Assembly: GCA_022822905.1 (NCBI GenBank)
Contig: JAJDYE010000037.1
Span: 38,859 to 102,858, forward strand
Reading direction: 5' to 3'
Length of the DNA stretch: 64,000 nucleotides
DNA from: Acidimicrobiia bacterium
Lineage (GTDB): Bacteria > Actinomycetota > Acidimicrobiia > Acidimicrobiales > Bin134
The notes beneath the pieces are model-generated. The model saw nothing but the letters and a program-made list of their open reading frames with translations. It did no database searches and was not told where the DNA came from. Position 1 is the stretch's first letter. Each line of letters opens with the position of its first letter. A program made the position numbers and the translations under genes. This document shows positions 3,043-44,987 of the stretch, in pieces.

Positions 3043-5109
3043 ATGGAATTGGAATCCATCGATATTGAGGCTGAGTCTGGACGGTTCATAAACCGCGAGC
3101 TCTCTTGGCTGGAATTCAACAGCCGGGTACTGGCCCAAGCCGAGGATCCATCGCTGCCCTTGCTGGAGCGGGTCAAGTTCTGCGCCATCTGGTGCTCCAA
3201 TCTGGACGAGTTCTTCCAGGTTCGGGTGGCAGGTCTCAAAGACCAGATGGCCGGCCAATTCACCGGCACCACTCCCGACGGCCGCACCGCCGCCCAGCAG
3301 CTCCACGAGATCCGCATCGAAGTAGATCGCCAGATGGACCGGGCGGCCCGCTGCCTGAGCGGCCTGACCGTGGAGATGGCCGACGCCGGCATCGAGATTC
3401 TGAACTGGGACGATCTGGACGACGAAGACCGCAAGTTCCTCTCCGGCGAGTTCGACGACCGCATCTACCCCGTGCTCACCCCTCTGGCGGTGGACCTCGG
3501 ACACCCGTTCCCCTACATATCCAATCTGTCGCTGAGCTTGGGCGTGCTGATGATCGACCCGGCCGACGGCCACCAGCGGTTTGCCCGCCTGAAGGTTCCA
3601 GCCACGTTCGGCCGCTTCCTCCAACTCCCCGACGAGCATCGCTTCGTTCCCATCGAGCAGGTGGTGGCTGCTCACCTCCCCACCCTGTTTCCCGGGATGG
3701 AGATCACCGAGACGGTGGCCTTCCGCGTGACCCGCAACGCCGACTTGGCGGTGGACGAGGGCGAGGCCCAAGACCTGCTGGCCGCGGTGGAGGTGGAACT
3801 GCGCCGCCGCCGATTCCGCAGCGTGGTCCGCCTAGAGGTGGAGCACCTGGTGTCGTCTGAGATCCGCAATCTGCTCATCGAGGAGCTCGACATCGAGCGC
3901 GACGACGTGTACGAGGTGGACACCCTGTTGGAGCTGTCCAGCTTGTGGGATCTGTTCGCGGTGGACCGCCCCGATCTAAAGAACCCGTCGTGGAAACCGG
4001 TCAATCCCCTGCCCTCCAAAGCGCCGGGAGACCAGCCGATCGACTTGTTCGCCCGCATCCGCGAGGGCGACATCCTGGTCCACCATCCCTACGACTCCTT
4101 CACCGCCACCGTGCAGGAGTTCATCTGGCAGGCAGCCAACGACCCCAAAGTGCTGGCCATCAAGCTCACCTTGTACCGAACCTCGGGCGACAGCCCGATC
4201 GTTCGGTCGCTCATCCGGGCCGCAGAGAGCGGCAAGCAGGTGGCGGTGGTGGTGGAGCTCAAGGCCCGCTTCGACGAGGAGGCCAACATCGAGTGGGCCC
4301 GCCGGCTGGAGCAGGCCGGCGTGCACGTGGCCTACGGGCTGGTGGGTCTCAAGGTCCACGCCAAGACCTGTCTGGTGGTGCGGGAAGAGGCCGACGGTGT
4401 GCGCCGCTACTGCCACATCGGCACCGGCAACTACAACTCCATCACTGCCCGGGTGTACACCGATCTGGGGCTGTTCACCGCCGACCCCGAGGTCGGGGTG
4501 GATCTGACCCAGTTGTTCAACTCCTTGACTGGCTACGGCCGCGACATCCAATTCCGCCGCCTGGTGCCCGCGCCCCAAGCCCTGCGCCCCACGGTGACGG
4601 AGCTGATCCGCAATGAGGCCGCCCGCGGTTCCGAAGGCCGGATCATCATGAAGATGAACAGCCTGGCCGATTCCGAGATGGTGGAAGCCCTCTATGAGGC
4701 CTCCCAGGCCGGAGTGGAGATCGATCTGATCGTGCGGGCCATTTGCTGTCTTCGCCCCGGGGTGCCTGGGATGTCGGACACCATCCGGGTCCGCTCCCTT
4801 ATCGGGCGGTACTTGGAACACAGTCGCATCTACTACTTCGGCAACGGCGAGGACATCGGCGCTCCGGCCTACTACATCGGCTCCGCCGATCTCATGCCCC
4901 GTAACCTCATCCGCCGAATCGAAGCTCTGGTGGCGGTGGTCAACCCGGAGCTGCGCCACCGCCTCGACCAAGTGCTGGAATACAACCTCAAAGATGACAC
5001 GCTGGCCTGGGATCTCCTGGCTGACGGGAGCTGGCAGCGGACCCACTCCCAGGGCGGTTTTGAAGCCCATACCGCCTTTGAGCGACTGGCCGTAGCCGCA
5101 ATCTCCTAG
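3043..5109 (+). CDS. ppk1: polyphosphate kinase 1
   Basis: 688 aa. The N-terminus RFINRELSWLEFNSRVLAQAEDPSLPLLERVKFCAIWCSNLDEFFQVRVAGL and the two PLD-like C-terminal domains are diagnostic of PPK1. Confidence 0.97.
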   Translation: MELESIDIEAESGRFINRELSWLEFNSRVLAQAEDPSLPLLERVKFCAIWCSNLDEFFQVRVAGLKDQMAGQFTGTTPDGRTAAQQLHEIRIEVDRQMDRAARCLSGLTVEMADAGIEILNWDDLDDEDRKFLSGEFDDRIYPVLTPLAVDLGHPFPYISNLSLSLGVLMIDPADGHQRFARLKVPATFGRFLQLPDEHRFVPIEQVVAAHLPTLFPGMEITETVAFRVTRNADLAVDEGEAQDLLAAVEVELRRRRFRSVVRLEVEHLVSSEIRNLLIEELDIERDDVYEVDTLLELSSLWDLFAVDRPDLKNPSWKPVNPLPSKAPGDQPIDLFARIREGDILVHHPYDSFTATVQEFIWQAANDPKVLAIKLTLYRTSGDSPIVRSLIRAAESGKQVAVVVELKARFDEEANIEWARRLEQAGVHVAYGLVGLKVHAKTCLVVREEADGVRRYCHIGTGNYNSITARVYTDLGLFTADPEVGVDLTQLFNSLTGYGRDIQFRRLVPAPQALRPTVTELIRNEAARGSEGRIIMKMNSLADSEMVEALYEASQAGVEIDLIVRAICCLRPGVPGMSDTIRVRSLIGRYLEHSRIYYFGNGEDIGAPAYYIGSADLMPRNLIRRIEALVAVVNPELRHRLDQVLEYNLKDDTLAWDLLADGSWQRTHSQGGFEAHTAFERLAVAAIS

Positions 5110-5745: not shown

Positions 5746-6816
5746 GTGAGGCTACCGAGACTGCTCGTACTGATAATCGGGCTTATGACTACGTTCGCGC
5801 TCGTCGCGGCCGCGTGCGGCAACGATGACGACGATGGGGGCGCAGCCCCAGACTCGGCGGGACAAACTGATTCCGGCGGCGATTCCGTGGGAAGCTCCAG
5901 CAGCGACAGTGGCAGCGGCGGCGATTCCGGTGGCAGCATCTCCGGGTCGGTGACGATCTCGGGTTCGTCGACGGTGGAGCCGATCTCGGTACGGGTGGCT
6001 GAGCTGTTCGAAGAAGTGGAGCCGGATGTGCAGGTGACCGTGGACGGTCCCGGCACTGGTGACGGCTTCAAGCTGTTCTGCGAGGGTGAGACCGACATCT
6101 CCGACGCCTCCCGCCCGATCAAGGACTCCGAGGCCGCCGATTGTGCCGAGAGCGGCATCGAATTCGTCGAGTTGCGGGTGGGCATCGACGGCATCGCGGT
6201 GATGACCGGCGAGGGCAACCCGGTGGGGTGCGTGAGTTTCAACGACATCTATGGCCTGGTGGGGCCGGAGTCGACCGGGTTCGGCTCGTGGTCGGACGCC
6301 GGCTCGCTGGGGCTCACTACTTCGAATCTTCCGGACGCTGAATTGGACATATACGGTCCGGGCGAGGAGTCGGGTACGTTCGACAGCTTCATCGAGATCG
6401 TGCTGGAGGACATCGCCGACGAGCGGGGCCAAGACGCCACCACCCGTCCCGACTACAACGCCAACGCCGATGACAACGTGATCATCCAGGGCATCCAGTC
6501 GAGCGACACCAGCTTCGGCTGGGTCGGGTTCGCCTTCGCGGCCCACGCCTCGGGCGTGAAGCTGCTCGATGTGGACGGCGGCGACGGCTGCGTGGGCGCC
6601 AACGCCGACACCATCGCCTCGGGCGAGTACCCCGTGTCCCGCTCGCTGTACATCTACGTGAACAAGGCCAAAGCGGCGGCCAACCCGGCCCTAGTCGCCT
6701 ACGTCGACTACTACATGAGCGACGACGGCCTGGGCACCGCGGTGAGCGACGTGGGCTACGTGAACCTCACCGACGACGCCAAAGGCGCCACCCGGGCCAA
6801 CTGGGCCGGACGCTAA
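5746..6816 (+). CDS. pstS: phosphate ABC transporter substrate-binding lipoprotein PstS
   Basis: GSSTVEP...DGPGTGDGF...DISDASRPIK motifs. The signal peptide has lipobox LVAAAC. GTG at 5746 is preferred as the start (AAGGAGG 4 nt upstream). Confidence 0.9.
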   Translation: MRLPRLLVLIIGLMTTFALVAAACGNDDDDGGAAPDSAGQTDSGGDSVGSSSSDSGSGGDSGGSISGSVTISGSSTVEPISVRVAELFEEVEPDVQVTVDGPGTGDGFKLFCEGETDISDASRPIKDSEAADCAESGIEFVELRVGIDGIAVMTGEGNPVGCVSFNDIYGLVGPESTGFGSWSDAGSLGLTTSNLPDAELDIYGPGEESGTFDSFIEIVLEDIADERGQDATTRPDYNANADDNVIIQGIQSSDTSFGWVGFAFAAHASGVKLLDVDGGDGCVGANADTIASGEYPVSRSLYIYVNKAKAAANPALVAYVDYYMSDDGLGTAVSDVGYVNLTDDAKGATRANWAGR

Positions 6817-14914: not shown

Positions 14915-15448
14915 GTGAATCCGCCGGAGACCGCTGAGGTGTGGATAGGGCTTAGCGAGGCGCCGCTGCCGTTAGACCAGGTGCTTGCTTGGGTGGGTCG
15001 TCCGGATTGCGGCGGCACTGTCCTGTTCAGCGGCACAGCCCGCGACCACTCGGAGGGTCGGCCGGGGGTGACCGTGCTCGAATACGAGGCCTACGAGGAG
15101 CAGGTGACACCCCGTTTGGAGGCGTTGGCGCAGGAGGCTCGGATCAGGTGGCCCGATATCGGACGGGTGGCGATGCTGCATCGGGTGGGCCGGGTGGAGA
15201 TCGGGGAGTCGGCGGTGGTGGCGGCTGTTTCTGCGCCCCATCGCGAGGAGGCCTTTGCCGCCGCCCGGTTCTGCATTGATGCTTTGAAGGCCACCGTGCC
15301 CATTTGGAAAAAGGAGGCCTGGGAGGGCGGCGAGAGCTGGGGTTTGGAAGCCCAGCACATCTCTGAGGCCGACGCAGTTGCCTCCCTTGATGACCGGTAT
15401 GCCCCTGAGGCCGACACGGTCTCTGCTTCAGGCGAGCTCGCCGGCTGA
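14915..15448 (+). CDS. moaE: molybdopterin synthase catalytic subunit MoaE
   Basis: GTVLFSGTARDHSEGR...LEYEAYEE...HRVGRVEIGESAVVAAVSAPHR...IDALKATVPIWKKE. Confidence 0.85.
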   Translation: MNPPETAEVWIGLSEAPLPLDQVLAWVGRPDCGGTVLFSGTARDHSEGRPGVTVLEYEAYEEQVTPRLEALAQEARIRWPDIGRVAMLHRVGRVEIGESAVVAAVSAPHREEAFAAARFCIDALKATVPIWKKEAWEGGESWGLEAQHISEADAVASLDDRYAPEADTVSASGELAG

Positions 15449-15451
15449 TCC

Positions 15452-16447
15452 ATGGCCCGAGACCTGGCGATCGATCTGGGCACGGCCAACACCCTGGTCT
15501 ATGCGCGCGGCCAGGGGATCATCCTGAACGAACCCTCGGTGATCGCGTTGAACCGCAAGACCAACGAGGTGCTGGCCATGGGCCGAGAGGCGTGGCAGAT
15601 GATCGGACGCACGCCAGCCCACATCGTTGCCGTTCGCCCGTTGCGAAAGGGGGCGATCACCGATTTCGAGGTGACCCAGCGCATGATCCGCCTGCTATTG
15701 ATGGATGCAGGGGTCAACCGGTTCAGTCGTCCGAAGGTGGTCATTTGCGTGCCGTCGGCGATCACCGCAGTCGAGCGCCGGGCGGTGGTGGAGGCGGCCC
15801 GTCGGGCCGGGGCGGCCGAGACCCGGCTCATTGAGCAGCCCCTGGCTGCGGCCATTGGAGCTTCGCTGCCCATTCACGAGCCCATCGGCAACATGGTGGT
15901 GGACATCGGTGGGGGAACCAGCGAGACCGCGCTGATCTCGATGGGCGGGGTCATATCTCTCAAGGCCATCCGAGTGGGCTCGTTCGACATCGATGCCGCA
16001 ATCCAGGCCTTTGTTCGACGCGAGTTCGGCATCGCCATCGGTGAGCGCACCGCTGAAGAGGTGAAAATCACCATCGGCTCCGCGGCCTACGTTCCCGGGG
16101 AGTGCAGCGCCGAAGTTCGAGGTCGCAATCTGATGAACGGCCTGCCCGAGACCATTGTGCTGTCGCCGTTCGAAGTGCGCACCGCCATTGCCGAACCAGT
16201 CTCCGCTTTCGTGGACTCGGTGGTGGCTTGCCTGGTGGAAGCCCCCCCGGAGCTGTCTCAGGACGTGATCACCCACGGCATCCACCTGGTGGGAGGCGGT
16301 TCGCTGCTGCGGGGTCTGGCCGATCGGCTGTCCCAGGCCGCAGAAGTGCCGGTGAGCCTGGTGGATGCTCCCCTGGAGGCGGTGGTGATGGGAGCGGGCC
16401 GCTGTCTGGAGTCCTTCGAGGACGTCCAGGCGATGTTCATGGAGTGA
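15452..16447 (+). CDS. mreB: rod-shape determining actin homolog MreB
   Basis: DLGTANTLVY...NEPSVIA...VICVPS...EPLAAAIGA...MVVDIGGGTSE, the actin/MreB nucleotide-binding motifs. Confidence 0.93.
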   Translation: MARDLAIDLGTANTLVYARGQGIILNEPSVIALNRKTNEVLAMGREAWQMIGRTPAHIVAVRPLRKGAITDFEVTQRMIRLLLMDAGVNRFSRPKVVICVPSAITAVERRAVVEAARRAGAAETRLIEQPLAAAIGASLPIHEPIGNMVVDIGGGTSETALISMGGVISLKAIRVGSFDIDAAIQAFVRREFGIAIGERTAEEVKITIGSAAYVPGECSAEVRGRNLMNGLPETIVLSPFEVRTAIAEPVSAFVDSVVACLVEAPPELSQDVITHGIHLVGGGSLLRGLADRLSQAAEVPVSLVDAPLEAVVMGAGRCLESFEDVQAMFME

Positions 16448-38451: not shown

Positions 38452-39435
38452 TCAGCCATCTCGCACCCTCGGATCTAGAGAGCCGTAAGCCAGATCGGTC
38501 AGCAGATTGACGATGATCACCGAGATGCCCACCGCCAACAGCCATCCCTGGGTCACGGCCACATCTCCGTTGAGCAGGGACTCTAGGAACAGCCGGCCCA
38601 TGCCTTTCCAGTTGAACACCACCTCGGTGACCACCGTGCCGCCGATCAGCGTTCCGAACGTGAGCCCGGTGTAGCTCACCACCGGAAGCAGGGCGTTGCG
38701 CAGGGCGTGGTGGGTGATGACCCGGCGCCGGGGCACCCCTTTGGCTCGGGCAGTTCGGATGTAGTCGCTCTCCAGCACATCGAGCATGGCCGAGCGCTGA
38801 AACCGGCTGGTGGCGGCCAGCTGGATCGCGATCAGGGTGAGGGCGGGAAGGATGATGTGGCCGGCCCGGTCGGCCCACGTCCCCCAGAAGTCGGCATCAA
38901 GCCGGGGCGACTGCTCGCCGATGGTGAAGAAGATCCGGCGACCCCACCAGTCGTTGAACCGGATGCCCAAGTCTTTGAGCAACGCTCCCAGCCAGAACAC
39001 CGGCATGGCGAAGAACAGAAAGGCGAAGAAGGTGGAGATGTTGTCGAACTTCCCGTACTGGCGCATCGCGCTCACCACCCCTACCGCCACGCCGAGGATC
39101 ACCGAGATGACGGTGGCGGCGATCACCAGCCGCAGGGTGACCGGTATGGCCTCGCCCAGCAAGGTGGTGACCGCCCGCCCGTTGTCGGTGGACGTGCCCA
39201 TGTCCCCGGTGAACATGTCGCCCAGCCAGCTTCCGTAGCGCTCGATAAGGGGCCTGTCGAGGCCCAGGCTGGCTTCCAGCCGTTGGACTTGCTCGGCGCC
39301 GCCGGGTTGCGACAGCAGAAAAACCCGCTGTTCGGCGATGGGGTCGACAGTGGCCACCAGCAAGAAGGCCACCAGGGTGGCGAAGAACAGGACGACGACG
39401 GATATGAGCAGCTTGCGTGTCGCGTACCCGAGCAC
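38452..39435 (-). CDS. peptide ABC transporter permease (DppB/OppB-type)
   Basis: VLGYATRKLLISVVVLFFATLVAFLL...LGLDRPLIERY...YIRTARAKG. GTG start at 39435. Confidence 0.85.
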   Translation of the reverse strand: MLGYATRKLLISVVVLFFATLVAFLLVATVDPIAEQRVFLLSQPGGAEQVQRLEASLGLDRPLIERYGSWLGDMFTGDMGTSTDNGRAVTTLLGEAIPVTLRLVIAATVISVILGVAVGVVSAMRQYGKFDNISTFFAFLFFAMPVFWLGALLKDLGIRFNDWWGRRIFFTIGEQSPRLDADFWGTWADRAGHIILPALTLIAIQLAATSRFQRSAMLDVLESDYIRTARAKGVPRRRVITHHALRNALLPVVSYTGLTFGTLIGGTVVTEVVFNWKGMGRLFLESLLNGDVAVTQGWLLAVGISVIIVNLLTDLAYGSLDPRVRDG

Positions 39436-39549
39436 TGCGTTGAACGCTAGCGCTATTCCCGCTCGGGCTAATCGACGCTTGCCGTTTGGCCCATGTGGCC
39501 TGGAACTAGCATTTTGCTTGTAGCCTTCGCAGGCGTGTCTGGACAGGAG

Positions 39550-40272
39550 ATGACTGCCATCGACACTTCCTTGAGCAAAGCCGACCGCCAGCTCATCCTG
39601 TCTGCGTTGCGATCTCCCAGGGGCCACTACCCCTGCGAGCGCGCCAGCCAGCTCTCCGGGATTCCAGCCCGCACGCTGCGTGACTGGCGCCATTCCGGCG
39701 TCCTCGTCCCCGATTGGAGCAACAGCAGCCTCTACGGCTGGTCGTATCGCGACATTGTCTATGCCCGCCTGATGGCCTGGCTTCGCGGCAAGGGCATGAA
39801 CCGCGACGACGCCGCTGGGCGCATCGGCCTGCTTCGAGGCGAACTGGCCGCGGCCGATATCGATCCGACGATTGCCGACGATCCGACAGTTCGAAGCGAC
39901 GGAATGGTCTTCCTGATCGGCCAGGAGCACATCGACCGCCTCACCGGCAAGCAGGTTTTCGGCGCCTTGATCTCATTTCTGGACGTGTTCGAACTAGTGG
40001 AACCGATCGAAGATGTTTCCAAGGGCAACCTCTGGGGTCCGAGCCTCATCCGACCGTCTGAGCACACCTACATTTCCCCCAACGTCGTGGCTGGCGAGCC
40101 CTGCATTATCGATTCACGCATCCCCACCAGCACGATTCACGGCCTGCGCAGCGAACGCGGCCTCGACGTACACAACATCATCGCCCTCTACCCCCAACTT
40201 GACGAAACCCGCATCACCGACGCAATCGGCCTTGAGTCCCGCCTACCGAGAGCCCTTCCCCGAGCCGCATAG
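39550..40272 (+). CDS. MerR-like HTH plus DUF433 domain protein (antitoxin-like)
   Basis: N-terminal YPCERASQLSGIPARTLRDWRHSGVL (MerR-type HTH). C-terminal ISPNVVAGEPCIIDSRIPTSTIHGL...ALYPQL (DUF433 pattern). Confidence 0.65.
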   Translation: MTAIDTSLSKADRQLILSALRSPRGHYPCERASQLSGIPARTLRDWRHSGVLVPDWSNSSLYGWSYRDIVYARLMAWLRGKGMNRDDAAGRIGLLRGELAAADIDPTIADDPTVRSDGMVFLIGQEHIDRLTGKQVFGALISFLDVFELVEPIEDVSKGNLWGPSLIRPSEHTYISPNVVAGEPCIIDSRIPTSTIHGLRSERGLDVHNIIALYPQLDETRITDAIGLESRLPRALPRAA

Positions 40273-40276
40273 CCAG

Positions 40277-40405
40277 ATGCGCCTCCTGCTAGACGAGAAC
40301 TTCCCGAACCTCCCTGATTTCATCTCAGCGTTGGGCAATTACCTGGCCGAAATCGTGTCCCTGCACGAATTCGATCTTCATTTGACCTGGGGCACAGGTG
40401 CCTAA
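40277..40405 (+). pseudogene. truncated DUF5615/PIN-like (Mut7-C type) toxin remnant, 42 codons
   Basis: MRLLLDENFPNLP... is the usual DUF5615 N-terminus. The ORF stops after about 40 aa, whereas from recollection full-length members are roughly three times longer. Confidence 0.45.
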
Positions 40406-40487
40406 CTGTCACTGGCCGTGCTTATAGTCTGAGGACAGCCGGAATGGCTGAGCCCTTGAAGACGTTCGACGAGTAGGGGGGGTCTCA

Positions 40488-41447
40488 ATGGTCGAGGCAA
40501 CACCAGAGCAACTAGGTCTTCTCGCCCTGTGCAGCTTGTCGGTGGGTGAAGACCGCTGCGACTGGGGGGTAATTGCCCGCCAGGCATACCGAGAACAGTC
40601 TCTTGAAGGATTGCTGAGCGGTGAGGTGGTCGAGTCCGGGGCCCGGGCAGAGCGCACTGGCTGGATTGCCGCAACCGCCACCGAGAGCCAATGGGCTTCG
40701 GCCTTTGCGCAGGCCGACCGGGAACTCGAGGCGGCCAGCACAGTAGACGCCCAGCTGACAACGATCTTCGATGACGACTTCCCTGTAAACCTCCGCTTCA
40801 TCCACAACCTCCCGCCATTCCTGTTCTACCGGGGGCCGCTCGACGCCAACCGAGACGCAAGATCGGTCGCCGTTGTGGGAACCCGCGAACCATCCACCCA
40901 GGGAATCAGCCGCGCCGAGCAGATGGCCCGCGAGCTCGCCAAACAGGGCATCACAGTCACCTCTGGTCTCGCCAAGGGCATAGACAGCGCAGCTCATCGG
41001 GCAACCCTGGACTGCGGTGGGAGGACCATTGCCGTTTACGGCACCGGCGTCACCACGACGTACCCGACGTCGAATGTCGAGTTGGCCGATGAGATCCTCG
41101 CGTCAGGCGGGCTTGTCGTCTCCCAGTTCTTCCCGACGGCCAAACCGGCTCAGTGGACCTTTCGCAAGCGCAACGAGGTCACCTCTGGCATCTCCCAGGG
41201 CACGGTGGTCATCGAGGCGTCCAAGACCTCGGGCGCCAAGATGCAGGCTCGGTTGGCCTTTGAGCACGGCAAGCGCGTATTCCTCATCAAGTCCCTGGTT
41301 ACCAATCAAGAATGGGCCAGATCCATGGTCGAGTCCAACCAGGCGATTGAAGTCCAATCCGTAGACGACATTGTGCGCAAGGTCGCCGACTCGGCCAGGC
41401 TGCACACCGCCAGCGAGAAGCTCCTCCTCCAGCCGTCGATGCTGTAG
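40488..41447 (+). CDS. DprA/Smf-like DNA-processing (Rossmann-fold) protein
   Basis: ..FPVNLRFIHNLPPFLFYRG...VAVVGTREPS..G...TSGLAKGIDSAAHRATL...GRTIAVYGTG...YP..N..L...I...GLVVSQF. Confidence 0.8.
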   Translation: MVEATPEQLGLLALCSLSVGEDRCDWGVIARQAYREQSLEGLLSGEVVESGARAERTGWIAATATESQWASAFAQADRELEAASTVDAQLTTIFDDDFPVNLRFIHNLPPFLFYRGPLDANRDARSVAVVGTREPSTQGISRAEQMARELAKQGITVTSGLAKGIDSAAHRATLDCGGRTIAVYGTGVTTTYPTSNVELADEILASGGLVVSQFFPTAKPAQWTFRKRNEVTSGISQGTVVIEASKTSGAKMQARLAFEHGKRVFLIKSLVTNQEWARSMVESNQAIEVQSVDDIVRKVADSARLHTASEKLLLQPSML

Positions 41448-41456
41448 CGCACATCC

Positions 41457-42022
41457 ATGTCCAAGCCTGAGGGTCGTAGGGATTTTCCCGATTGCAAGTT
41501 CTGCCGCTACGTCCAACAAGGGCCGTGGTGGGTCTGCGTCGAGTGTGCGTCGGAGACCCTGCGGTCAATCACCGACCCCTGCCCCATCTGTGTCTGCAAG
41601 CAGAAGGAAGGCAATTGCTCGAAGACGGATCAGCACAAGCCGACCGGTGGAATCAGGGCTGTTTGGACCTGCAGAATCACATCAGAGCCCTGGGACGGGC
41701 CGACAGGCCAGACCTGCCCACTTCGCTGCGTGAGTTCTTCCACAGCTTCGAGCATGCAACCGGCCGCATGTACCAGATACTGCATGGAATACCCGGCATC
41801 GCAGAGGATAGGACGCAACTCAGGCAGTTCTTCAGCTGGTTCGACCTGGTCTACCGGCACTCGACATACGCGATCACTGCAAGCTGTTGCCCAGACAAGA
41901 ACCCTCCTTCAACCCTGAGGACGACAATCAATCTGACTACCGGCGAAGTAACACAAGAAGGCGAACGCGGCGAAGCGATAGTGCCGAAAGAGTACCGCCA
42001 CGCAACCGACAAGGTCCGCTAG
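41457..42022 (+). pseudogene. zinc-ribbon protein with unknown C-terminal domain, apparent -1/+2 frameshift
   Basis: Frame A gives MSKPEGRRDFPDCKFCRYVQQGPWWVCVECASETLRSITDPCPICVC (three CxxC pairs). After about 41600-41650, protein-like sequence continues only in frame B (..LREFFHSFEHATGRMYQILHGIPGIAEDRTQLRQFFSWFDLVYRH..*). Confidence 0.5.
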
Positions 42023-42769
42023 TTGAACGAATTCACACCCTACGTAAGCGAGCAGCTCAAGGCGTACGTCTATCTGTTGATCGATCCGCGGGACGGTGAG
42101 ATTTTCTATGTAGGCAAGGGAAATGGGAACCGTGTCTTTGACCACGCCCTAGACGCTCTTGCTGACAGGGAGACCTCAAGCGACAAGCTAGAGCGGATCA
42201 GGGAGATTCGGGCAGCGGGTTGCGAGGTGCGACACGAGTTGCTCCGATTCGGCCTCACAGGTCGCACAGCACTCGAGATCGAAGCGGCAGCGATCCAGCT
42301 TCTCGGCCTAAGTGAGCTCACGAACAAGGTCGAAGGCCATCACGTTTGGACCCGGGGTCGGATGGCCACAGAAGTTGCGGTGTCGCTCCTTGACGCTCAG
42401 CCAGCACCTGAGATCGTGGAGCGGGTCATCATATTTCGCATTCCCCATCTCTGGTCTCCGGTGATGTCCGCCGACGAGTTGTATGAGGCGACGCATGGTT
42501 GGTGGCCGCTCGGGGATCGCCGCGATGGTGCCGAATTTGCTTTTGCCGTCAGCAGCTGGGTCATCCGCGAGGTGTACCGGATAGATGCAGATAGCTGGCG
42601 ACAGCGTCAGCCAGGCGACCGAGACTGGGAACTAGACATTGGGAAGTCGCGCAAACGGTGGGGGTTCAGCGGCGAGGTCGCGGAGGAACTCGCGCACTAT
42701 ACAAACAAGAATGTGAAGCACCTCTACAAGGACCGCGACCGTTCGACATTCAAATACGTGAACTGCTAG
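42023..42769 (+). CDS. GIY-YIG nuclease-superfamily protein with unknown C-terminal domain
   Basis: AYVYLLIDPRDGEIFYVGKGNGNRVFDH gives the GIY(YVY)-x10-YIG(FYVG)-x-R pattern. The TTG start directly abuts the preceding TAG. Confidence 0.7.
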   Translation: MNEFTPYVSEQLKAYVYLLIDPRDGEIFYVGKGNGNRVFDHALDALADRETSSDKLERIREIRAAGCEVRHELLRFGLTGRTALEIEAAAIQLLGLSELTNKVEGHHVWTRGRMATEVAVSLLDAQPAPEIVERVIIFRIPHLWSPVMSADELYEATHGWWPLGDRRDGAEFAFAVSSWVIREVYRIDADSWRQRQPGDRDWELDIGKSRKRWGFSGEVAEELAHYTNKNVKHLYKDRDRSTFKYVNC

Positions 42770-43265
42770 AGCCAAGCCCTCCAGAAAAACCAGGGCGGTT
42801 CAAACCCTCGCCGAATGCATGGGTATCACGCTGCCTTCGTGATCTTGAAGCCGTTCAATCCAGGAGTGTGTGATCGAGCATTGGGCGAGTAGCTCGGATA
42901 GCCAATCTGTTCAAGTGGTATGGATGGTTCTGGTTCAGGTCTAGGCGATAGAGCAGCAGCGCAGAGGCGAACGCCTGAAGCCCCCACGACTTGGGACGGG
43001 CCGCTGATTTGGTCGTGTATGGTCTAGGTGCCGCTGCCGTGTTCAGAATCTGAGGGAGATATGCAGGCAGTCATCGCAGGATTGATAGCGGGAGTGGCGG
43101 TTGGGAAGGCGGAAGGCTGGCAGCGGGAGCGATGAGTCGAAAGGCTCTGCCCACTTAGTGATTCCGCCGAAGTCTCCCATGGCCAAAGTCTGTCAGCTTG
43201 GCCATCTTGAACCTCCCAGGGACACCCACAGCCCTCAACCGCGCAAACAAACCCGCGACGCACCA

Positions 43266-44987
43266 CTAGTTGGCCAGCGCCCACTCTTCCAGGTTCCAGG
43301 TGAAGCTCTCCAAGGTGGGGTTGTCTTGGATGTTTTGGAGGTTCTCGTTCCAGGCCAAGAAGAAGGGGAGCTGGTACACGGGCGTGTTGGGGAGGGTTTC
43401 CCACATGAGGGCGTCGGCCTGATTGAGCAACTCGGCTTGGCGGTTGGCGTCGAGGGTGAAGGTGGCCTCCACCAGCAGTTCGTTGACCTGATCGTCCACG
43501 TAGGCGCCGGGGTTGCTGTCGCTGCCGGTGCCGAACACTTGAAGAGCCGATGTGGCCGGCAGCGGTCCGCCCACCCAGGCGAAGATCACCAGATCGAAGT
43601 CGCCGGGGGGGCCGGGAGGGTCGTTGGTTGAGCCGAACACCGGACCGAAGATCTCGCCTCCGGGCAGGTTGTCGATGGTGATTCTGATTCCGGCTTCAGC
43701 CAGCTGGTTCTGCACCAGTTCTTGGAACTGCTCCCGGCGGTCATTGCCTCCGGTGGTGCGGATGCGCAGACTCAGCTGCCGTCCGTCTTTGGCGTATACG
43801 TCGCCGTCGAGCTCCCAGCCGGCAGCTTCCAGCACGGCGCGGGCCGCGGCCACGTCCCGCTGTTGGAACTCAGCGGGAGTGTTGTCTTGATACTGGGCTT
43901 GGCCGTTCATGTAGATCCGGTTGCCCAGTGGCTGAGCCGACTCCGAGAACGGCCGCATGAGCGCGGTCACGATCAGCTCTCGATCGAGCGCTAATGCGAT
44001 GGCCTGGCGCGCCTCCAAAGGAACGGTGGCAGTGTTGAACGTGATGTGCTCCCAGGTGGGGCCGAAGGTGATGGAGGATTCCACTCCGCTTATACCGTTG
44101 ATCTGTTGCACTAAGTCCACTTGGGGTTGCGGATAGATCACGTCTACTTCGCCGTTCTCCAGCGCGAGGGGCAGGTTGCCCACGTCGCTGATGAACCGGA
44201 AGGTGACCTCGTCGATATGGGGACCTTCGCCGAACCAGGTGGGGTTGGCCACCAGTGTCAGATCGCTGCCCGGGTTGTACTCGTCCACCACATAGGGACC
44301 GGCGCCCACACCTGGATCGGTGCGGAAGCCTTCGCTCCAGTCCCGGCCCAGGTGGGCGGGCGGGAACGGTCCGGAGAACAGCAAGATGTATTCCACGAAG
44401 GGCTGGCCCTCGGGCCAACTCAGACGGACGGCCTTGTCGTCCACCACCTCCAAGGTTGCGCTGTCGAAGCCCTGAGTGGCAGCGCAGTCATCTTGGGGGT
44501 CGTTGCAGTTCTCGAAATAAAACACCATGTCGTCGGAGCTCACCGGGGTTCCGTCGCTCCACATGGCGTCGGCTCGCAGCCGGTACTCCACCACCAGGGG
44601 GTCCTCTTGGATGATGGTGGGCAGGGTTTCGCAGAAGTACGGCTCAAAGGAGAAATCGGGGCGGGTCCGCGTGCAGGTGGGGTAGATAGCCCGGGTGATT
44701 TGGCGACCGGCCAGGAGGTTGTCGCCGGCCGTCAAGTTGTTGAAGTTGGTGATCTCCTGCTCCAGACCGACGACCACGCTGGTGGGCTGCTCTTCTTCCG
44801 GGCTGGGGTCTTCGGCTTGTGTCGGGGCCGCCGCAGGCTCTTCATCTGTGGCCGGGGCCGCAGTGGGCCCTGAGGCGTCCGGTGGAGGCGAGTCGTCGTC
44901 GTTGCCACAGGCAGCGGCTAGCAGGACTAGTGCCAGCAGGGCCGCGACCACTCGCGAATATCGATCGATTTTCATGTGCTTTGTCAT
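43266..44987 (-). CDS. peptide/nickel ABC transporter substrate-binding lipoprotein (family 5)
   Basis: Lipobox LLAAACGNDDD. The length and motifs (..WSDGTPV..DD..F.., ..GPY.., ..PW) are typical of DppA/OppA-type SBPs. The start was trimmed to MTKHMKIDR. Confidence 0.85.
   Translation of the reverse strand: MTKHMKIDRYSRVVAALLALVLLAAACGNDDDSPPPDASGPTAAPATDEEPAAAPTQAEDPSPEEEQPTSVVVGLEQEITNFNNLTAGDNLLAGRQITRAIYPTCTRTRPDFSFEPYFCETLPTIIQEDPLVVEYRLRADAMWSDGTPVSSDDMVFYFENCNDPQDDCAATQGFDSATLEVVDDKAVRLSWPEGQPFVEYILLFSGPFPPAHLGRDWSEGFRTDPGVGAGPYVVDEYNPGSDLTLVANPTWFGEGPHIDEVTFRFISDVGNLPLALENGEVDVIYPQPQVDLVQQINGISGVESSITFGPTWEHITFNTATVPLEARQAIALALDRELIVTALMRPFSESAQPLGNRIYMNGQAQYQDNTPAEFQQRDVAAARAVLEAAGWELDGDVYAKDGRQLSLRIRTTGGNDRREQFQELVQNQLAEAGIRITIDNLPGGEIFGPVFGSTNDPPGPPGDFDLVIFAWVGGPLPATSALQVFGTGSDSNPGAYVDDQVNELLVEATFTLDANRQAELLNQADALMWETLPNTPVYQLPFFLAWNENLQNIQDNPTLESFTWNLEEWALAN

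Follow-up and report, generated by a model that had tools for sequence, protein, structure and literature searches.

We examined a 64,000-nucleotide (nt) stretch of the genome of an Acidimicrobiia bacterium (assembly GCA_022822905.1, contig JAJDYE010000037.1, positions 38,859 to 102,858), hereafter called the window. A preliminary description had singled out in it a tightly packed trio of genes at 40488-42769, comprising a DprA-like gene, a small zinc-ribbon gene and a gene for a GIY-YIG nuclease, and had proposed that they form a new coupled DNA-targeting or defence system. We find instead that the region is very probably a mosaic defence islet carrying parts of three unrelated modules, and not a three-gene machine. 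The DprA-like gene and the zinc ribbon represent a known kind of pair, resembling the ShosTA toxin-antitoxin (TA) system with its phosphoribosyltransferase (PRTase) toxin, and the GIY-YIG gene belongs to the PD-T4-3/CMoRE family; in substance, the genes fall under two systems that already have names. The value of the analysis is mainly corrective: the apparent combination of DprA, zinc ribbon and GIY-YIG comes down to a gene fragment and two known defence systems, of which one is dead, and it is not to be listed among new systems.

The argument starts from the reading frames. In the list of open reading frames (ORFs) of the plus strand, the DprA-like ORF of 319 amino acids (aa), at 40488-41447, is followed after a 9-nt spacer by an ATG at 41457, which opens an ORF of 153 aa that stops at 41918. 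A second ORF of the middle region (41492-42022) lies in another frame, the same as that of the GIY-YIG gene. It ends with a TAG (42020-42022) placed directly before the TTG at 42023, from which the 248-aa GIY-YIG ORF runs to 42769. The interval 41457-42022 measures 566 nt, which is not divisible by three; given this length and the two frames, no single zinc-ribbon gene occupies it. The DprA-like ORF, the 9-nt spacer and the GIY-YIG ORF of the proposed trio are therefore real, but its middle gene is two frames. Likewise, the TAG does abut the TTG, but this TAG closes the frame of the ORF at 41492 and not that of the ORF begun at 41457, so that the 0-nt spacer of the preliminary description is no join between the zinc-ribbon ORF and the nuclease gene. 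Neither of the two middle ORFs had a match in Pfam, PADLOC or NCBIfam profile searches.

The upstream part of the middle region is the beginning of a toxin gene. Residues 1-45 are the same as in an intact 240-aa protein (P0007) and are collinear with the proteins of five related genomes (G010, G022, G007, G048 and G008) through C45, after which all similarity is gone. The three CxxC pairs that had suggested a small zinc ribbon are indeed present within these 45 residues (C13/C16, C27/C30 and C42/C45), but they belong only to the stump of a 240-aa PRTase, which retains six of the eight cysteines invariant in the family and nothing of the PRTase core. When the whole source genome, which was recovered from a community sample as 42 contigs and is 95.65% complete, was searched with the G010 toxin, the stump was the sole match (query residues 1-54), with nothing else at E ≤ 0.01. 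At the DNA level, a block corresponding to window positions 40407-41590 and containing the DprA-like gene recurs at unrelated loci in G010, G022 and G007 (77-79% identity). The similarity to these three genomes ends at 41590 and similarity to another relative, G009, restarts at 41592, the two halves being out of frame by one base. A programmed frameshift linking the zinc ribbon to the downstream frame was considered and rejected, the junction being a pair of DNA-similarity breakpoints and the two halves coming from unrelated protein families.

Public contigs of runs X1-X4 were compared with the window over 40200-42100, and two of these runs provide the undeleted form of the locus. X3 and X4 are other samples, X4 being from another study. 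Their contigs cover 40201-41591 with 36 and 48 differences, respectively, and then turn into unlike sequence from 41591. This continuation, shared by the two, translates to the residues of P0007 that follow C45. They also share with the window its left junction, in which a truncated partner of a DUF433 gene is followed by the ShosA-type gene. Because these relatives, which are about 96-97% identical, have an intact toxin, the state of the window is the later one and arose by a deletion reaching from toxin codon 46 into the next gene, here named ORF-b. On this comparison, the window carries a recent deletion in the toxin gene. It is a clean and dated case of toxin loss from a type IV TA pair, with close relatives intact at this level of identity and the antitoxin surviving.

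The downstream part of the middle region is what remains of ORF-b, a gene of about 178 codons in full. The remnant is 95% identical to positions 6026-6456 of the G009 locus L012, and we found 10 homologues of 171-184 aa (42-100% identity) and 25 genome loci (L026-L050) for this family. No gene in the neighbourhood of ORF-b recurs in more than five of the 25 loci. The idea that ORF-b encodes an accessory subunit of the nuclease was dropped, since a GIY-YIG gene lies within 4 kb in only one of the 25 loci; that locus (L026) has the helicase, ORF-b and GIY-YIG genes arranged as in G009 and hence is not independent. The ORF-b family (G009 L012:5920-6456, P0087), of about 180 aa, gave no match in Pfam, PADLOC or NCBIfam. 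Its records come from Acidimicrobiia, Dehalococcoidia/Chloroflexota, Terriglobia and Bacteroidota-type genomes, and its invariant motifs include REF..FEH and TTINLTTGE.

The intact counterpart of the stump is found next to DprA-like genes in relatives. In G010 and G022, a spacer of 9 nt separates the 319-aa DprA-like gene from the downstream 240-aa zinc-ribbon PRTase gene, whose product combines a cysteine-rich N-terminal region with a C-terminal PRTase motif. In an alignment of 25 members of the family, the DD..T of the PRTase core is invariant, as are eight cysteines that form a double zinc ribbon. The partner matches the Pfam Pribosyltran model with an E value of 2.1e-05, under the gathering score. 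It aligns end to end with the NCBIfam GntX/ComF models at 46-52 bits, against cut-offs of 304 and 233.55, and its close homologues in Acidimicrobiia are named 'ComF family protein' in database records. Experimental work on the zinc-ribbon form was not found in the literature searched.

Counts within the genus refer to 40 genomes, the source genome (G000) included, with the G010 240-aa protein as toxin query (matches at E ≤ 1e-10) and a DprA-like query (matches at E ≤ 1e-40). The toxin query found eight genomes. The match was full length in five (G010, G048, G007, G022 and G008), was divided into two pieces in both G049 and G052, in the latter at the end of a contig, and was limited to residues 1-54 in G000. 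The DprA-like query also found eight, at 64-100% identity over the full length in seven (G000, G010, G007, G022, G048, G049 and G008) and as a relative at 49% identity in G047. All six of the other genomes with a close DprA-like homologue also have a toxin match on the same strand, at a distance of 12-27 nt downstream; the 240-aa zinc-ribbon PRTase gene itself begins 9-12 nt after the DprA-like gene. Among metagenomes, 80 of 237 confirmed zinc-ribbon PRTase loci were used, and 72 of these 80 have at least 300 nt upstream. A co-directional DprA-like gene, 48-80% identical to the window protein, stands immediately upstream in 51 of the 72; it is 845 nt away in one and missing in the remaining 20. 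The zinc-ribbon PRTase pair is widespread, occurring in Acidimicrobiia-type genomes and on environmental metagenome contigs, and the comparison brings to attention a zinc-ribbon, ComF-like version of the PRTase toxin linked to DprA-like genes.

Two side observations concern this family. For the 20 loci without a DprA-like neighbour (among them L088, L091, L102, L110 and L124), seven upstream ORFs were scanned and proved to be five amidohydrolases of about 500 aa, one pro-kumamolisin-type protease and one methyltransferase; the amidohydrolase-preceded form may place the same PRTase in another functional setting. In G049, one extra base immediately follows the CPICSQ codons of the toxin gene (L024, about 4390-4420, minus strand), a few codons from the position matching the deletion breakpoint of the window, whereas the DprA-like gene is undamaged. 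Either the toxin has been inactivated a second time, independently, or the extra base is a homopolymer/sequencing error in a single-contig assembly.

The DprA-like protein of the window matches the PADLOC ShosA model with 232.5 bits (positions 52-294 of 303) and Pfam PF02481 with an E value of 5.5e-62; its score on the PsyrA model (1.2e-29) is far below that on the ShosA model. It is 77-81% identical to the PRTase-linked orthologues of G010, G007, G022, G048 and G049, and its assignment to the ShosA type derives mainly from this conserved pairing with a PRTase gene and not from the model score. The source genome has three DprA-domain genes, which represent three different roles: the window gene, a 409-aa gene on contig C11 and a 368-aa gene on contig C19. 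The C11 gene is the housekeeping dprA, located between comM/yifB-like and xerC-like genes. This comM-dprA-xerC neighbourhood belongs to it and not to the window gene, which lies outside the housekeeping context just as the preliminary description had supposed. The window protein shows 32% identity to its own housekeeping DprA and 26% to its own PsyrA. On C19 (L003:1288-3541, minus strand) we observed a complete PsyrTA/RqlHI-type system, with a RecQ-like helicase-PRTase fusion followed by the 368-aa DprA-like gene (PADLOC PsyrT E 2.6e-146, PsyrA E 1e-80). G008 (L016, about 15298-16028) has two DprA-like copies about 10 kb apart, one belonging to an intact DprA-like/PRTase pair and the other split between two frames.

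The GIY-YIG gene is intact and of the PD-T4-3/CMoRE type. Residues 2-238 match profile positions 4-244 of the 256 of PD-T4-3, and Pfam recognizes an LEM-3-type GIY-YIG domain (PF22945, E 4.4e-16). PD-T4-3 has been renamed CMoRE and is reported in PMC12923530 to act as a single gene; the E. coli enzymes are described there as cleaving DNA with 5-hydroxymethylcytosine (5hmC) or glucosyl-5hmC and not ordinary DNA. The same source gives CMoRE a GIYxY-YIG motif with a third tyrosine and an autoinhibitory loop that has four consecutive acidic residues in most members. The CMoRE chains of PDB 9U75 and 9U7U align with residues 2-231 of the window nuclease (E 9.9e-26). The three tyrosines of 9U75 have their counterparts in its Y15, Y17 and Y29. 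In the same alignment, the Arg of GNRVF and the Glu of EIEAA, candidates for the catalytic pair of the GIY-YIG fold, face identical residues. The C-terminal domain, taken for an unknown one in the preliminary description, falls within this full-length homology and is predicted to be the modification sensor of CMoRE. The stand-alone gene and the two-domain layout are those of the family. The window enzyme, which comes from a high-GC Acidimicrobiia-type genome, is distantly related to CMoRE and has a shorter and less acidic loop. This extends the known homologues of PD-T4-3/CMoRE to such genomes from sponge metagenomes.

The nuclease gene is not linked to the DprA-like gene. Homologues are present in 21 of the 40 genus genomes, and only in G000 is one adjacent to the ShosA-type gene; adjacency is found in one of the four genomes that have close homologues of both, which does not bear out the recurrent neighbourhood that the preliminary description had wished to see checked. 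In the other three, the two genes are 91 kb (G022), about 1.07 Mb (G048) and at least 0.6 Mb (G007) apart. The DNA similarity of the homologues found elsewhere begins at the start codon (42024), and none of the 80 metagenome PRTase loci has a GIY-YIG match nearby. Several of the PD-T4-3/CMoRE homologues of the genus are split, partial or interrupted by an in-frame stop (G018, G048, G011, G046, G042 and G003), and the nuclease gene is frequently decaying in this genus. The G022 copy adjoins a transposase-like ORF and a nucleotidyltransferase-type TA pair.

Comparison with characterized systems suggests how the parts would have worked. ShosTA and PsyrTA consist of a PRTase toxin and a DprA-like antitoxin and are reported to protect E. 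coli from phages (bioRxiv 10.1101/2022.05.11.491447; PMC9122126). From what is given in PMC11961720 and PMC12961424, ShosT perturbs purine metabolism and ShosA binds DNA in single-stranded form (ssDNA) as well as RecA, not the toxin, and thereby counteracts ShosT; the system is classed as a type IV TA in PMC12961424, where E. coli ShosT is described as a protein of 424 aa with a Rossmann-type, pyrophosphatase-like N-domain and a C-terminal PRTase. The window resembles ShosTA in having a DprA-like Rossmann protein of about 320 aa, encoded beside a PRTase-domain gene in the relatives and apart from the housekeeping dprA. It differs in that its toxin is cut to 45 codons, so that no intact PRTase gene adjoins the DprA-like gene. 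In the window and its relatives, the gene order is antitoxin then toxin. With PsyrTA/RqlHI the pair shares a DprA-like antitoxin and a PRTase-bearing toxin, as opposed to the low identity to its own PsyrA and the lack of a helicase domain. To housekeeping DprA/Smf it is related by PF02481 and, marginally, by TIGR00732, whereas that role belongs to the separate C11 gene. The partner in the relatives recalls ComFC/GntX in its zinc finger and PRTase, although its scores are far under the cut-offs, and, unlike natural-transformation genes, pairs of the window type are patchy and island-borne.

In the sequence of events that we propose, the deletion would have left an intact DprA-like gene, the 45-codon stump and a 5'-truncated bystander ORF-b, the last two fused out of frame. 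Lacking its toxin, the DprA-like/PRTase module could presumably no longer kill an infected cell, and the DprA-like gene is most simply regarded as a recently orphaned antitoxin, which would have no remaining function. The GIY-YIG enzyme would act alone, its C-terminal domain sensing modified bases of invading DNA and its N-terminal GIY-YIG domain cutting.

Several results weigh against this interpretation. The partner in the relatives matches the PADLOC ShosT model only weakly and in part (E 2.5e-07 and 1.3e-09, profile positions 86-211 of 237), and, at 240 aa, it has an eight-cysteine zinc-ribbon N-terminus where E. coli ShosT has a Rossmann-type N-domain; the toxicity of this PRTase subtype is presumed by analogy. 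The housekeeping DprA of the same genome also scores 173.6 bits (E 1.4e-51) on the ShosA model, compared with 232.5 for the window protein. Among solved structures, S. pneumoniae DprA (3uqz, E 3.1e-34) comes closest in sequence, before E. coli ShosA (5e-24), and the window protein lies barely over the NCBIfam TIGR00732 dprA cut-off (193.9 versus 191.15 bits). The nuclease loop is 3 residues shorter than that of CMoRE and has scattered D/E in place of the four consecutive acidic residues. The deletion junction is spanned by the X1 contig only; an X2 contig crosses it by 14 nt and was not counted as bridging. Finally, the orphan DprA-like gene shows no signs of decay. Like its five closest orthologues in the genus (G010, G022, G048, G049 and G007), the window gene is 960 nt long, and no indels separate the six. 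The ratio of non-synonymous to synonymous substitution rates (dN/dS) of the window gene to these five (0.12-0.14) is similar to that among the five (0.07-0.145), which include G049 with its possibly frameshifted toxin gene. As the deletion is recent, with about 3.5% DNA divergence from the intact-toxin relatives, this ratio neither shows nor excludes continued selection.

It is conceivable, if rather unlikely, that a DprA-like gene followed by a 240-aa double-zinc-ribbon PRTase gene, antitoxin first, constitutes a third, uncharacterised DprA/PRTase TA architecture next to those of ShosTA and PsyrTA, and that the orphan gene is perhaps also under selection. It may then serve to neutralise PRTase toxins in trans, either the PsyrT of its own genome or those of incoming elements, or to load RecA in repair. 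We consider it improbable that the DprA-like/zinc-ribbon PRTase pair is an accessory competence pair of DprA and ComFC paralogues acting on incoming ssDNA, of which the window copy has decayed. The closeness to transformation DprA in the structure search, the narrow pass on TIGR00732, the 'ComF family protein' names and weak end-to-end GntX/ComF alignment (about 48 bits) and the link of PRTase/ComF and DprA to competence made in PMC4670107 all speak for it. Yet the genome already has its comM-dprA-xerC locus and a separate ComF-like gene, and the GntX/ComF scores stay far under the 304- and 233-bit cut-offs. The pair is moreover patchy, the ShosA type being present in seven of the 40 genus genomes, at different loci and among TA genes. 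It is the PRTase half that is broken in G000, and apparently in G049, with the DprA-like half intact, an asymmetry that suits a TA pair, and DprA and PRTase pairs are documented as TA and defence systems (bioRxiv 10.1101/2022.05.11.491447; PMC9122126).

The ORFs could alternatively encode one co-translated DNA-targeting module, as their common direction, the 9-nt gap, the TAG abutting the TTG, the DNA-related folds and the defence islet around them would suggest. This is very unlikely, since the middle 'gene' consists of two truncated genes fused out of frame and the abutting TAG and TTG derive from the way in which ORF-b and the GIY-YIG gene are arranged in G009, where there is no DprA-like gene. 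The GIY-YIG homologues are far from ShosA, absent from the PRTase loci (0/80) and nearly so from the ORF-b loci (1/25), and the single-gene action reported for CMoRE (PMC12923530) fits poorly with such a module. There is an equally slight chance that the leftover zinc-ribbon ORF, as 45 residues or as the 153-aa chimera, has gained a function of its own, for instance as a small regulator or a decoy for the DprA-like protein. It has kept its start codon, the 9-nt coupling distance and three CxxC pairs, and X2, a second sample of the same study as X1, has the same sequence without differences; but two of the eight invariant cysteines are gone, its last 108 codons come from another gene read in the wrong frame, the family searches (Pfam, PADLOC and NCBIfam) gave no homologue for the chimera, and the X3 and X4 relatives have the intact gene. 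It is extremely improbable, lastly, that the junction at 41590/41591 is an assembly chimera of co-occurring strains and that the true organism has an intact pair. The 42 contigs, the community sample and the existence of close relatives with an intact toxin are what such an artefact would require. X1, however, contains a separately built contig of 19,123 nt that is identical across 40200-42100, although X1 is the probable source sample and its support is therefore not independent; the homology at the junction, about 4 nt, is too short for a k-mer assembler to bridge wrongly, and the reported depth is equal on both sides. We thus retain the reading of a mosaic islet with an orphaned ShosA-type gene and a stand-alone nuclease gene. 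Its features are collected in the table.

Features of the islet and its flanks (window coordinates).
Feature	Position	Strand	Remarks
Left flank, ABC transporter permease gene	38452..39435	-	ORF list; start inferred from the G009 orthologue
Defence islet, lower GC, 3.83 kb	39436..43265	.	Between the permease and substrate-binding-protein genes of an oligopeptide ABC (ATP-binding cassette) transporter operon
Intact MerR-type helix-turn-helix (HTH) + DUF433 gene, putative antitoxin/regulator of an older TA pair	39493..40272	+	Pfam DUF433 E 1.8e-08, MerR_1 E 2.1e-04
Cut-down partner of the DUF433 gene	40277..40405	+	42 codons, about 33 native, vs 176 in G009
Intact DprA-like gene, ShosA type, toxin lost	40488..41447	+	PADLOC ShosA PDLC03961 E 1.6e-69
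5' stump of toxin gene (ShosT-like, 'ComF family' double-zinc-ribbon PRTase)	41457..41591	+	First 45 of 240 codons
Chimeric 153-codon ORF	41457..41918	+	45 toxin codons + 108 out-of-frame codons; arose through the deletion
Deletion / illegitimate-recombination junction	41590..41591	.	TCTG microhomology at the join
3' remnant of ORF-b, gene of about 178 aa	41592..42022	+	About 143 codons + TAG; first 36 or so codons lost
Intact PD-T4-3/CMoRE-type GIY-YIG endonuclease, predicted type IV modification-dependent	42023..42769	+	PADLOC PD-T4-3 E 1.2e-36
Right flank, substrate-binding-protein gene of the same ABC transporter	43266..44987	-	ORF list

The bounds of the islet were obtained by a DNA search of the 40 relatives and local BLAST. 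In G004, G006 and G011, window segments 39300-39435 and 43266-43400 are only 9-11 nt apart, and these adjoining flanks define the islet as given in the table. The same site is without an islet in most relatives. The flanks are 88-98% (left) and 80-98% (right) identical in relatives, and the start of the right-flank gene at 44987 was inferred from a signal-peptide-like MTKHMK... sequence. The GC content is 0.58-0.62 over about 39500-43500, compared with 0.64-0.69 on either side. The lower GC and the empty site agree with the foreign-composition islet that had been perceived earlier, and the defence context is likewise supported, two of the islet genes matching defence families (PADLOC ShosA and PD-T4-3). 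Within the islet we found no terminal direct or inverted repeats above 14-nt chance-level matches, no tRNA-like feature and no Rfam match. A promoter scan gave no sigma-70-like promoter, such a scan being of little value for a high-GC actinobacterial-type genome.

Upstream of the ShosA-type gene, the islet holds an older pair, which accounts for the TA debris recognized in the preliminary description: the DUF433 gene is intact, with 94% DNA identity to G009, and its partner is truncated, the similarity to G009 ending at 40376. The full-length G009 partner has sub-threshold Pfam matches only (PIN_10 E 0.056, DUF5615 E 0.11). The partner would have been cut when the ShosA block entered. The islet of G009, at the same site, shares window positions 39302-40376 (94%) and 41592-43105 (95%), and has 2.9 kb in place of 40377-41591. 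This 2.9-kb stretch encodes the full-length 176-aa DUF433 partner and, in the opposite orientation, a UvrD-type helicase. It also contains the 5' portion of a 192-codon ORF whose TAG stands directly before the TTG of the GIY-YIG gene.

The G009 helicase (L012 3777-5690, minus strand) is of a stand-alone UvrD type and matches many PADLOC GajB models (best E 7.7e-41); no GajA-like gene lies beside it in the G009 islet. Further along the same locus (L012 7462-8988) is a gene whose 508-aa product resembles the RNase E/G family in its C-terminal part (E 3.7e-22). The insertion site is hotspot-like, G009 and the X3/X4 strains carrying different cargo there. As the islet splits the transporter operon between the substrate-binding-protein gene and the first permease gene, the permease genes need either transcription across 3.8 kb of antisense foreign DNA or a new promoter.

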